A program made the translations under genes and the position numbers. The notes under the pieces were generated by a model. It saw only the letters and a program-made list of their open reading frames with translations, was not told the origin of the DNA and made no database searches. From a virus (lineage: Duplodnaviria > Heunggongvirae > Uroviricota > Caudoviricetes), in IMG/VR virus record IMGVR_UViG_2693429524_000019, positions 1 through 32,064 of that record: DNA of 32,064 bases; one strand, given 5' to 3'. Every line of letters starts with the position of its first letter. Position 1 is the stretch's first letter. Positions 2,006-4,640 of the stretch are shown piece after piece.

Positions 2006-2031
2006 TTTTCATAAACGTTGGTTTGGGAGAA
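2006..2031. repeat. candidate invertase crossover site A (gix/pix-like), adjacent to pin
   Basis: TTTTCATAAACGTTGGTTTGGGAGAA resembles recalled gix/hix consensus (AAACC-NN-GGTTT core); shares core TTGGTTT with site B in inverted orientation. Confidence 0.4.
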
Positions 2032-2487
2032 GGTGCTCCAGCTATTGGCGTTCCGTTCTTCTGGCCGTCCGCTGCAATGCCAAATACTGTAATCGACAGC
2101 TGGTCCAGTATGGTGTTTTTGAAGTTCAACGGGGCGAAATTTTCTGCCTCTGATTACCCTGTGCTGGCAAAAGTGTTTCCTTCGCTGGTATTACCTGAAG
2201 CCCGCGGTGATTTCATTCGTATCTGGGATGATGGCCGTGGTGTTGATAGTGGCCGTGCGTTACTTTCCGCGCAATCAGACGATTTCAAAACGCACGAGCA
2301 TAAATTTTTAGGGCTAAATGGAAGTGGCAGTAATGTAGTGTTTGGCACCGTTTCGAATGCTTCTCCATTATATACCAGCGGCGTTAGTCAGCCGGGTGGA
2401 AGTGCTTTGCCCGCTTTTCAAAACCCAGGCGGTACTGAAACGCGTCCCCGTAACATCGCATTCAACTTTTTAGTAAGGGCTAAATAA
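2021..2487 (+). CDS. alternative tail-fibre C-terminal segment (Sv'), silent orientation, no own start
   Basis: reading frame continuous from crossover core; encodes [37 protein letters not shown]...GDFIRIWDDGRGVDSGRALLSAQ, a conserved tail-fibre C-terminus of the Mu S / P1 S / e14 StfE type. Confidence 0.6.
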
Positions 2488-3080
2488 TGAAACCTGTTTT
2501 TGATGAAAATGGGCTGGCTACAGTGCCGGGCGATATGCGTTGTTTTTATTATGATGCAGTAACGTATGAATATACGGGCTGGTCTGATGAATATATTAAT
2601 ACTGGCGTAAGTATGCCCGCCTGTTCCACTGGTATTGACCCTGGCGAATACATTCCGGGGAAAGTGGCAGTATTTACGGGTAAGGGATGGAGCCATGAAG
2701 AAGACCACCGCAATGAGACTGTTTACTCAATCGAAAATGGCGCAGCTGTTACAGTGGATTATATCGGTGCCATCAAAGACGGTTATGTCACGCTTTCACC
2801 GTTAACGCCATACGATAAATGGGATGGTGAGAAATGGGTGACCGATACTGAGGCACAGCATAGCGCTGCAGTAGACGCGGCAGAAGCACAGCGTCAGTCA
2901 CTGATTGATGCTGCAATGGCTTCCATCAGTCTGATTCAGCTGAAATTGCAGGCCGCACGTAAACTGACGCAGACAGAAACAACCCGACTTAACGCCGTGC
3001 TGGATTACATTGACGCGGTGACTGCAACAGATACCAGCACCGCGCCGGATGTCATCTTGCCTGAACTGCCGGAGGCGTAG
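2487..3080 (+). CDS. tail fibre assembly protein (U'/Tfa), silent orientation
   Basis: 197 aa; ATG overlaps the Sv' stop (TAATG); C-terminal ..LNAVLDYIDAVTATDTSTAPDVILPELP is a typical Tfa C-terminus; convergent with the other tfa. Confidence 0.7.
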   Translation: MKPVFDENGLATVPGDMRCFYYDAVTYEYTGWSDEYINTGVSMPACSTGIDPGEYIPGKVAVFTGKGWSHEEDHRNETVYSIENGAAVTVDYIGAIKDGYVTLSPLTPYDKWDGEKWVTDTEAQHSAAVDAAEAQRQSLIDAAMASISLIQLKLQAARKLTQTETTRLNAVLDYIDAVTATDTSTAPDVILPELPEA

Positions 3081-3489
3081 GCCATTCAATATCTGGAGCA
3101 CTGGAGGTATCAACCAGTTCCAGTGCGTCCAGATAATCCAGCCACAAATTATATTGCGCCAGTTCCTCACCTTTCAGACGACCAATAGCTGCTTTACCTG
3201 GCCATTGCCTGTTATTCATGTGCTCATTGGCAGTATCTATGCGCCGCTGACGCTCGTATTCTGCCATCTTTATCAGTTCTTCAGGTGCCAGTGGCGGAAT
3301 ATCACTCCATACGGGATAACCATCATCACCCGCAATCCTCATTTTTCCCTCCGGTGGCTTCTGAAATGCAACAAAAGTCTCTTCATCAACTTCCACGCCT
3401 TTTTCGGGCCACATCCCTGCCGCCTCATAGTCTGCCTGCATTGCTAATGGATAAAATGCGTTAGTTACTGCGTCGTATAAATATTTCAT
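3052..3489 (-). CDS. tail fibre assembly protein (U/Tfa), expressed orientation
   Basis: 145 aa, SD AGGAAG upstream, immediately follows tail-fibre gene; C-terminus ..NLWLDYLDALELVDTSSAPDIEWPTPP is paralogous to the U' C-terminus. Confidence 0.7.
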   Translation of the reverse strand: MKYLYDAVTNAFYPLAMQADYEAAGMWPEKGVEVDEETFVAFQKPPEGKMRIAGDDGYPVWSDIPPLAPEELIKMAEYERQRRIDTANEHMNNRQWPGKAAIGRLKGEELAQYNLWLDYLDALELVDTSSAPDIEWPTPPAVQAR

Positions 3490-3491
3490 TT

Positions 3492-4640
3492 TTATCTTCC
3501 TATTGCTATCCAGTTGGCACCAGCTCCTTTGACAGCCCCCTGACGCGATGACGCGAGATAAAAACCATAGTTATTTATCTTACTTGTCGAGAATGCCGGG
3601 CAGTCTTCTGCACTGGTTGGCGTATCGAAAGAACATGCGACGCGATAATCATCGGTAAAAGGTATCGGGAAATTAACAGCAGTTGGGTAGCCAGCAGAGC
3701 CTGAAATGTTCGTACCAAACTGCATGATGGTGCCGTCAGGAAATTTCACCCAGCCAGGACCTGATGTGAAATTAGCCATTGTCGGAACCTGATTAGCCCC
3801 ATTTCCCAGGTTTGCTGTTGCTGCTGAGCCAAGCCCTAAATTTGCTCGTGCGTCGGCAGCTGTGGTCGCGCCGGTTCCGCCCTGACTAAGCGCTAGAGCC
3901 ATTGGCGTTCCGATATTGTTAAGTACGCCCCATGCACCACTATCATTCACAAACAGCCGATAGTTATCGCTTTGTGAAGTAATGTATGTGTCAACTAAGC
4001 CTTGTACTAAACGATTGACGCCAAGGTTACTACGCGCTTCTGCCAGAGAAGTCCCGCCAGTTCCCCCCTTAGACAGAGGTACTGTGTTCTCCGTTGCCAC
4101 ATCTCCCAGACCAAGATTACTACGCGCGCTGGCAGCATCTTTTGCACCTGTACCGCCAGATGATAATTGCAGTGCAATAGTCCCTGCCTGGGGACTTATT
4201 GAATATGCCCCCCATCCATCATTCTGCACAAAAACATAAGATTTTTTGTTTGGTGACCAAATGCGTGTTTCGTTAGTGTCCTGATCACATCTTTCTAAAC
4301 CAAGATTTTCGAGAGCCGTTTTCACCGTGCCGTCCGATTTGATATCGCCAAACGGATTCTTGCGGCTCAGGTATTCAACAGCAAACCCCGATCCCAGCAA
4401 TTCAACAAAACCGGACAGATCACCATTATCAAGCACATCCCGTTGCGTTTTATCACTTACAAACTGGGCCAGAGCTGCAGCAATAAAGCTGGCCTGCCGA
4501 ATAACCTTATTGACTTGCGCACTGGATGCTTTACCTGCTGTAAATCCGGATAAAAGCGCAGGCAACGCTTCCCATTCCTCCTGCGACATAACATTGGCAT
4601 TTTTACCCGTTGCGAATGCTTTAAAGTCATTTTTTGCCAT
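3492..4640 (-). CDS. tail fibre protein (S): constant N-terminal part plus variable C-terminal part
   Basis: 382 aa from ATG at 4640 (TGATG coupling with upstream gene); three repeats of LSxGGTG..(A/S)xxARxNLGLG; last gene of the baseplate operon before the tfa. Confidence 0.75.
   Translation of the reverse strand: [382 protein letters not shown]
4290..4316. repeat. candidate invertase crossover site B inside the tail-fibre gene
   Basis: plus strand TCTTTCTAAACCAAGATTTTCGAGAG; reverse complement carries the same TTGGTTT core as site A; encodes ..ENLGLER.. in S, frame-compatible with ..NVGLGEG.. at site A. Confidence 0.4.

Follow-up and report, generated by a model that had tools for sequence, protein, structure and literature searches.

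Here we report the analysis of an invertible tail-fibre segment in a 32,064-bp stretch of DNA from a virus of the class Caudoviricetes (IMG/VR record IMGVR_UViG_2693429524_000019, positions 1 to 32,064; hereafter the window). Positions 2006-4315 are best read as a segment of the Din family (Hin/Gin/Cin/Pin) and of the P type known from prophage e14, which lies where the late operon of a prophage beside pphA in Escherichia coli ends and whose inversion would be carried out in trans; we put the probability of this reading at roughly 85%. Both orientations of this allele occur naturally and are joined at the predicted site cores. The two fibre C-termini are compatible in frame with the same constant N-terminus, the adjacent invertase gene pin is a pseudogene, and parts of the segment are exchanged as cassettes among related prophages.

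The segment, its two crossover sites and its genes are arranged as follows, where S is the tail-fibre gene, Sc its constant part, Sv and Sv' the two variable parts, and tfa and tfa' the assembly chaperone genes.

2019..4302, no strand assigned: the invertible segment itself, which spans 2,284 bp from one central dinucleotide to the other
2006..2031, plus strand: crossover site 1, pin-proximal, TTTTCATAAACG TT GGTTTGGGAGAA, central dinucleotide at 2018-2019
4290..4315, minus strand: crossover site 2, inside S, CTCTCGAAAATC TT GGTTTAGAAAGA as read on the minus strand, central dinucleotide at 4302-4303
3492-4658, minus strand: tail-fibre gene S, 388 amino acids (aa) when read from the first ATG; its C-terminus is gp53-like (PF21882)
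4304..4658, minus strand: Sc, constant N-terminal part of S, as given in the list of open reading frames (ORFs); database proteins have 382 aa
3492..4301, minus strand: Sv, currently expressed variable fibre C-terminus (PF21882, 3e-10; phrog_6683, 4e-84)
3052..3489, minus strand: tfa, assembly chaperone for the current Sv, 145 aa (Pfam Caudo_TAP, 5.8e-33; phrog_188, 2e-57)
2487..3080, plus strand: tfa', assembly chaperone for Sv', 197 aa (Pfam Caudo_TAP, 2.5e-24; phrog_105, 3e-81)
1978..2487, plus strand: ORF at the silent position, a 16-aa leader (MMPFACYFCIFINVGL) followed by Sv' of the collar type, counterpart of e14 stfE

Translation of S from the ATG at 4640 gives 382 aa, the start used by database entries and likely the true one. 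The currently expressed Sv carries three GGTG...NLG(L/V) repeats in addition to its gp53-like C-terminal domain, in agreement with the triple repeat described in the initial annotation of this DNA, which had been made from the letters of the sequence. The two chaperone genes (both PF02413) are convergent, overlap by 29 bp and each lie directly downstream of their variable part; the ORFs and the Pfam and PHROG assignments thus bear out the layout proposed there, with two alternative fibre C-termini and two convergent chaperone genes between the crossover sites. The Sv' ORF matches PHROG tail-fibre and tail-collar families at 1e-52 to 1e-54, its match to Pfam Collar is weak, and its leader is also present in K-12 stfE and at other loci. 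Scanning of positions 1300-4800 for promoters and terminators gave counts at or below shuffled expectation and no sigma-70-like promoter upstream of the pin-proximal ORF.

Both orientations of the segment and its crossover sites

When both sites were cut in silico at their central TT and the intervening 2,284 bp were inverted, an uninterrupted in-frame Sc+Sv' fibre of 274 aa was obtained, whose stop codon abuts the start of tfa', together with a 283-aa ORF beside pin that consists of the leader and the present Sv. The two recombinant junction sequences are TTTTCATAAACGTTGGTTTAGAAAGA and CTCTCGAAAATCTTGGTTTGGGAGAA. Database search with the predicted Sc+Sv' fibre identified the protein P0135 (268 aa) at 100% identity over the full length, so that the in-frame fusion of the constant part of S to Sv', first proposed from the shared codon phase of the two sites, exists in an actual protein as well as in silico. 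P0135 is encoded on contig ABUOCJ010000082.1 of the E. coli assembly GCA_041882125.1 (locus L019), at the same pphA locus, where the gene order is S(Sc+Sv')-tfa'-tfa-283-aa chimera-pphA, with no pin called between the chimera and pphA.

Alignment of L019 with the window revealed 100% identity over positions 1-2024 and 4297-4681 (2,409 bp of flanks), and reversal of positions 2018-4303 (2,286 bp) with a single difference, G/A at 3855. The alignment pieces overlap solely in TTGGTTT, at 2018-2024 and 4297-4303, which gives the ranges of the two breakpoints, and the recombinant sites of L019, TTTTCATAAACG TT GGTTTAGAAAGA and CTCTCGAAAATC TT GGTTTGGGAGAA, match the in-silico prediction exactly. The breakpoints fall inside the predicted cores; a reader of the sequence alone, who had placed the crossover sites of this fibre switch at about 2006-2031 and 4290-4316, was therefore correct to the base at both of them.

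Further support comes from database proteins and other assemblies. Among the cluster representatives, only 382-aa and 367-aa fibres matched the predicted 283-aa chimera. Inside one 52-member cluster, three proteins of 283 aa were found (P0125, P0126 and P0128), the first of which equals the predicted leader+Sv chimera residue for residue, the other two being further alleles. P0126 and P0128 combine the leader MMPFARYF... with an Sv allele (SPDKKSY...SINPQAG), both as in locus L015, where pin is intact, and this combination points to independent flips in a second genetic background. Both fibre states (the 388-aa and 274-aa ORFs) are annotated as genes in real assemblies, and the exact allele is present on two contigs per orientation; as a 7-bp repeat cannot cause mis-assembly, the contigs of the window and of L019 both represent real molecules. 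An exact 31-nt pattern for the Sv junction, in either position, was absent from the genome_contigs and metagenome_contigs collections, which are without this E. coli lineage.

Flips at the corresponding positions were also observed in relatives. In strain Eco_23-2667 (L006) the segment has the orientation opposite to that in the window, and the O157 strains ECP19-198 (L008) and FORC_044 (L009) possess the same cryptic prophage remnant with 100%-identical flanks and an oppositely oriented P segment of 1,880 bp, the flip between them using the same two site positions as in the window. Among complete O157:H7 genomes, both orientation classes are common. The window and the flipped isolate are both represented by short-read draft assemblies, and one might ascribe their difference to an assembly artefact, or to RecA-type or illegitimate inversion between short repeats, instead of a site-specific event. 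We consider this extremely improbable: the exact repeat of 7 bp is far below assembler k-mer sizes and produces no mis-join, the breakpoints lie at the centres of Din-type sites that are the same as the O157 and K-12 sites, and the three chimeric-ORF alleles come from separate assemblies.

The two sites are identical at 16 of 26 positions, namely in the 7-bp core TTGGTTT and at 9 of the 19 positions elsewhere. They have the central dinucleotide TT in common, read in inverted orientation, and S and Sv' read the GGT codon in one and the same phase (CTT GGT TTA and GTT GGT TTG, respectively), just as had been noted at the outset for the shared core. For scoring, we used the list of Din-family sites in Table 3 of PMC3241671. 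Site 1 is the published pixR site of e14 (26/26), with a score of 14/15 against the dix consensus, and it was the sole match in a Din-type consensus scan of the 32 kb allowing up to three mismatches, where 0 were expected. Site 2 is identical to e14 pixL at 21 of 26 positions and has the corresponding place within the conserved ...TALENLGL... block. The two sites have the inverted orientation that a Din-family pair requires, with consensus scores of 14/15 and 11/15, the latter lower than for any of the 13 published sites that were scored. Comparison with the gix/pix/cix consensus, as suggested in the initial annotation, gave a clear match for site 1 and a weak one for site 2. From sequence alone, there is no doubt about site 1, and site 2 is no more than a positional homologue; because the latter's sequence by itself is at chance level, the case for it is made by its positional homology to pixL and by the flipped isolate.

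A perfect 16-bp inverted repeat of the e14 type, TTGGTTTGGGAGAAGG, occurs at site 1 only, the corresponding sequence at site 2 being TTGGTTTAGAAAGATG (10/16). Since inversion still occurs, the missing repeat is a sequence variant that leaves the mechanism unaffected. Generic inverted-repeat search of the window yielded chance-level pairs and the pair 2018-2030/4102-4114 (12/13), and none better than the two sites, a better pair elsewhere having been named as grounds for abandoning them. The region 4101-4126 was considered as an alternative site and rejected: it is identical to site 1 at 15 of 26 positions, scores 9/15 against the consensus and is unused in L019. Each internal Sv repeat encodes an in-phase quasi-crossover sequence of this kind (4101-4126, 4011-4036 and 3825-3850, all on the minus strand), and the inner half of the first is identical to that of site 1 at 10 of 12 positions. 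These internal NLGLG quasi-sites gave no sign of use.

The low identity between the two sites had initially been attributed to decay after loss of the invertase. This explanation did not hold, as the inner half GGTTTAGAAAGA of site 2 is unchanged in L015, with its intact pin, and in the prophages L004 and L005, which lack pin. Because this inner half, which encodes G-L-E-R, is fixed in the cassette, the divergence reflects a polymorphism of the Sv cassette, which the recombinase tolerates. In strain COL60J the inner half of site 2 has yet another, third form, GGTTTAAAAGAA. In the outer half of site 2, the change from AAAACC to AAAATC (C>T) is present at 100% identity in unrelated E. coli, for example IAI39 and CE10. 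The two sites of e14 itself are 21/26 identical, with a perfect 16-bp inner part.

The pin pseudogene and the agent of inversion

Two features are located at the pin-proximal end, adjoining the segment.

1398..1987, minus strand: pin, pseudogene of a Din-family serine invertase, in two frames (catalytic 1598-1987; helix-turn-helix (HTH) 1398-1631)
1867..1930, minus strand: candidate Fis-dependent recombinational enhancer, two G-N13-C 15-mers in the 5' part of pin

In an alignment to intact alleles of pinE, the canonical start of pin (1951-1949) reads ATA and not ATG, and a 1-bp deletion near 1653 splits its catalytic domain from the HTH domain. The Pfam domains Resolvase and HTH_7 fall on separate ORFs, tblastn with K-12 PinE recovered two frames (1951-1637 and 1658-1401), and the canonical frame reaches its first stop at aa 117, versus 184 aa in intact alleles. 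With a product about 88% identical to K-12 PinE at the protein level, a recombinase gene does adjoin the segment, though as a pseudogene. In the Hin, Gin and Cin systems the enhancer lies inside the 5' end of the invertase gene, which is the basis for its placement here: the candidate Fis 15-mers at pin nt 22-36 (1916-1930) and 71-85 (1867-1881) are identical to K-12 pinE at 15/15 and 12/15 positions, respectively, and the first 150 nt of pin are identical to those of the functional K-12 gene at 130 positions.

The ATA start and the 1-bp deletion are common to COL60J (L002), L012, L013, L014 and L019. While the flanks of L019 are 100% identical to the window, the other four diverge from it by 0.7-2%, and because these more diverged relatives share the dead allele, the flip would be younger than the inactivation of pin. 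By parsimony, the dead allele appears to be older than the split between the window and L019. A flip that came after pin inactivation argues that the segment was not frozen by it.

Because the local pin is dead, in an allele that predates the flip, the most likely catalyst of the inversion is a Pin-type invertase encoded by another prophage in the same genome and acting in trans. The invertases Hin, Gin, Cin and Pin are able to cross-complement one another. Searching with pin plus the segment gave a median of 2 matching places among the 3,523 matching complete E. coli genomes, a count of places in which pieces of pin were not counted separately. In K-12, each of PinE, PinQ and PinR inverts the e14 P segment (PMC12529663).

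In the proposed mechanism, a serine invertase dimer would bind each 26-bp site and the two sites would synapse; the resulting invertase tetramer would make staggered cuts, offset by 2 bp, at the central TT, after which the 2,284-bp segment would be rotated and religated. If the mechanism of the family applies, the cleavage step would depend on the Fis-bound enhancer in the 5' part of pin. Sc would thereby be fused to the gp53-like Sv, followed by tfa, in the orientation of the window, and would be in frame with the collar-type Sv', followed by tfa', in the other, the unused Sv being placed behind the 16-codon leader beside pin. The trans-acting invertase would have used site 2 despite the lack of a consensus-quality half-site.

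One could instead suppose that the pin pseudogene itself yields a little active invertase, by initiation at an ATG further upstream (1987), followed by +1 slippage in a run of six T (T6). An in-frame ATG is indeed located 12 codons upstream of the ATA, an extra U would restore the frame of the defective allele (TTTCTTTTTTC, versus TTTTTCTTTC in the intact one), and this restoration would alter three residues only, giving MAVSFF for MGRFFF. We nevertheless regard residual activity in cis as very unlikely, since T6 is short for efficient slippage, the N-terminal extension would stand immediately before the catalytic-serine region, and the altered residues are at the start of the oligomerisation helix, described as critical in Hin (PMC4513852). 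The T6 run is situated about 10 nt downstream of the pin deletion on the sense strand (about 1630-1660 in the window), and slippage there is speculative.

Several observations weigh against a P-type segment that is inverted in trans. No second invertase gene is found within the 32-kb window, and we infer the trans step. The two orientations were compared between isolates, rather than within one culture. The Fis enhancer is a candidate, proposed from its position and its conservation. Finally, site 2 taken alone is at chance level, since nine other 26-mers in the window equal its dix consensus score of 11/15; each half reaches 5/7, and all 13 published sites that were scored (hix, gix, cix, pix, mix and bix) have at least one half at 6-7/7.

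Cassette exchange among relatives and the surrounding prophage

At the same locus, the prophages of COL60J (L002) and GCEC19 (L003) align with the window to either side of 3115-4296, and not within it. This region contains Sv and most of tfa and behaves as an exchangeable cassette, with Sc being 98% conserved in same-locus relatives as far as position 4297. The Sv+tfa cassette, with an identical Sc junction, was identified at 98.7-99.5% identity, with 99.5% for L004, in prophages of E. coli 33-6 (L004, beside dinI/prfC) and E. coli A41 (L005, beside dinI/ssrA), both of which are without an invertase and without a second Sv. Of the 5,426 complete E. coli genomes, three possess this Sv, always fused to Sc.

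These results had led us to suspect that site 2 is dead and that homologous recombination with a non-invertible fibre had brought in Sv and tfa, because the cassette is replaced in L002 and L003, shared with the pin-less L004 and L005 and present in 3/5,426 genomes, and because the site 2 halves score 5/7. The dead-site part of this proposal was refuted by the flipped isolate L019 and by the chimeras in the database. A separate alternative, in which a once invertible segment is now locked and its two orientations reflect an old polymorphism or horizontal replacement of the whole region, would be in keeping with the pseudogene state of pin, with a site 2 of 11/15 that has no good half-site, with the presence of the Sv cassette in prophages without an invertase, and with the fusion of this Sv to Sc in each of the three complete E. 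coli genomes where it occurs. Such a relic is nonetheless unlikely: the window and L019 are identical over 2,409 bp of flanks and differ by one single-nucleotide polymorphism in 2,286 bp, and the relatives with dead pin are 0.7-2% away. The flip would accordingly be much younger than the inactivation, and the occurrence of the exact allele on two contigs per orientation also speaks against a locked state.

Several other features of the relatives were noted. The COL60J prophage, with the same dead pin allele, has an insertion of the IS3 family in the constant part of S and a different Sv cassette. Homology of L004 to the window extends 21 nt beyond the tfa stop into the 3' end of the window's tfa', a stretch that could be a deletion remnant or a mere terminator-like hairpin. 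Short-read contigs L011, L016 and L017 end inside tfa, about 340 nt past the S stop, at the cassette boundary near 3114-3150 where the conserved C-terminal part of tfa starts; these breaks are probably repeat-induced contig ends, rather than a sign of inversion. E. coli proteins named 'integrase' (252 aa, and fragments of 64-69 aa) match Sv' or Sv at about 99%, and this set (P0242, P0248-P0254; P0123, P0127) probably represents misnamed ORFs adjoining pin.

The left 7 kb of the window represents the right end of a prophage adjoining pphA in E. coli, and the window matches contig CYFD01000031.1 (E. coli assembly GCA_001284405.1), its very probable source, at 100% over 10,640 bp. The allele is also present in run ERR178206. 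The chromosomal neighbour is located as follows.

277-936, minus strand: pphA, chromosomal gene, neighbour of the right end of the prophage

The remainder of the window carries the tail, head, terminase and lysis modules of the prophage, which is lambdoid and has a contractile tail. Upstream of S are the baseplate genes (DUF2612/wedge, baseplate J, sheath initiator and spike), Sc being part of the last gene in the baseplate operon. The prophage is collinear with the same-locus prophage of COL60J and otherwise 96-98% identical to it, the collinearity being broken at 7425-11114, a region with a small lipoprotein-like ORF at 7730-8071 (MKKIFLLAVLTPTICVGG...) and variant baseplate/Dit-like genes. 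Gathering-level Rfam matches in the early/lysis region include the sok antitoxin RNA of hok/sok (28639-28813), a C4 antisense RNA of P1/P7-type immunity (26269-26353) and isrK (26379-26456), all on the minus strand.

A prophage with a dead invertase that still switches its fibre would make host-range and defence phenotypes dependent on the other prophages of the cell. In addition, a site of 11/15 that is missed by consensus scans is used in nature, and the prediction of serine-invertase sites should weight position and core above half-site consensus. At the protein level, the TTGGTTT core specifies the final (N)LGL of a tail-fibre repeat that is widespread. A more far-reaching proposal, which we offer as a tentative and rather doubtful one, is that Din invertases acting in trans efficiently use a site without a consensus-quality half, of which the 7-bp TTGGTTT is shared, so that motif-bearing C-termini would be ready cassettes and orphan segments would be kept flipping. 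If this is true, nearly any fibre C-terminus carrying the motif, including the invertase-less types of L004 and L005, could be captured into an invertible segment, and other prophages of the host would go on inverting orphan segments whose pin is dead. Host defence is a possible benefit of such continued flipping. A recent report describes the e14 counterpart as an anti-phage switch whose leader-Sv chimera StfE2 blocks adsorption of T2, and the 283-aa chimera of the flipped state would be a candidate for a similar defence role.

Comparison with known invertible segments

The e14-type P segment has been known since the 1980s. It was re-examined in 2014 (PMC4272514) and in 2025 (PMC12529663), and the NCBI annotation of relatives of the window already includes pinE, tail-fibre and assembly genes. 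The type of segment described here is thus already known, and the new twists are a site without a consensus-quality half and evidence for an orphan segment that flips after the death of its invertase. Given the known trans-complementation and the degenerate half-sites of mix and hixR, a specialist would not be surprised by either.

The closest counterpart is the P segment of e14 in K-12 (stfP-tfaP-tfaE-stfE-pinE), which has an identical gene order and orientation, the same 29-bp overlap of the chaperone genes (tfaP/tfaE) and a leader beside pin that is the same but for one residue (MMPFACYFC versus MMPFACYFF). Site 1 corresponds to pixR, site 2 lies at the pixL position in the same ...TALENLGL... 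context, and the default state is also the same, with a gp53-like Sv on Sc and a silent collar-type Sv'. The segment measures 2,284 bp here and 1,797 bp in e14, because the present Sv, with its three fibre repeats, is longer. In its inner half, site 2 reads GGTTTAGAAAGA here and GGTTTGGGAGAA in e14, and due to this difference the perfect inverted repeat comprises 7 bp here versus 16 bp in e14, the 16-bp repeat TTGGTTTGGGAGAAGG being the one reported for the 1,797-bp P segment (PMC12529663). The systems also differ in that pin is a pseudogene here, the locus is pphA versus icd, and the full structural module is retained in the present prophage.

The G segment of Mu (gin) and the C segment of P1 (cin) follow the same logic, with a constant N-terminus, two opposed C-termini with a chaperone each, and an adjacent serine invertase. 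Each of their sites spans 26 bp, and crossover takes place over the central 2 bp (Table 3 of PMC3241671). The central dinucleotide of the present sites is unlike that of gix (GA) and like that of cix, hix and pix (AA/TT); the inner halves of paired gix and cix sites are identical, whereas those here are different, and the Mu and P1 fibre proteins are unrelated to the present fibre outside the motif. Inversion in trans has precedents in PinQ and PinR acting on the e14 segment and in Fin of Fels-2, which inverts the Salmonella H segment according to Kutsukake 2006, as cited in PMC4272514; in these cases the segment's own invertase is intact and trans action is experimental, whereas here pin is dead and trans action is deduced. 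Tolerance of one conserved and one highly variable half-site, within conserved fibre motifs, is likewise a property of Min of plasmid p15B (PMC3241671), which acts on six sites with several cassettes, whereas two sites are used in the segment described here.

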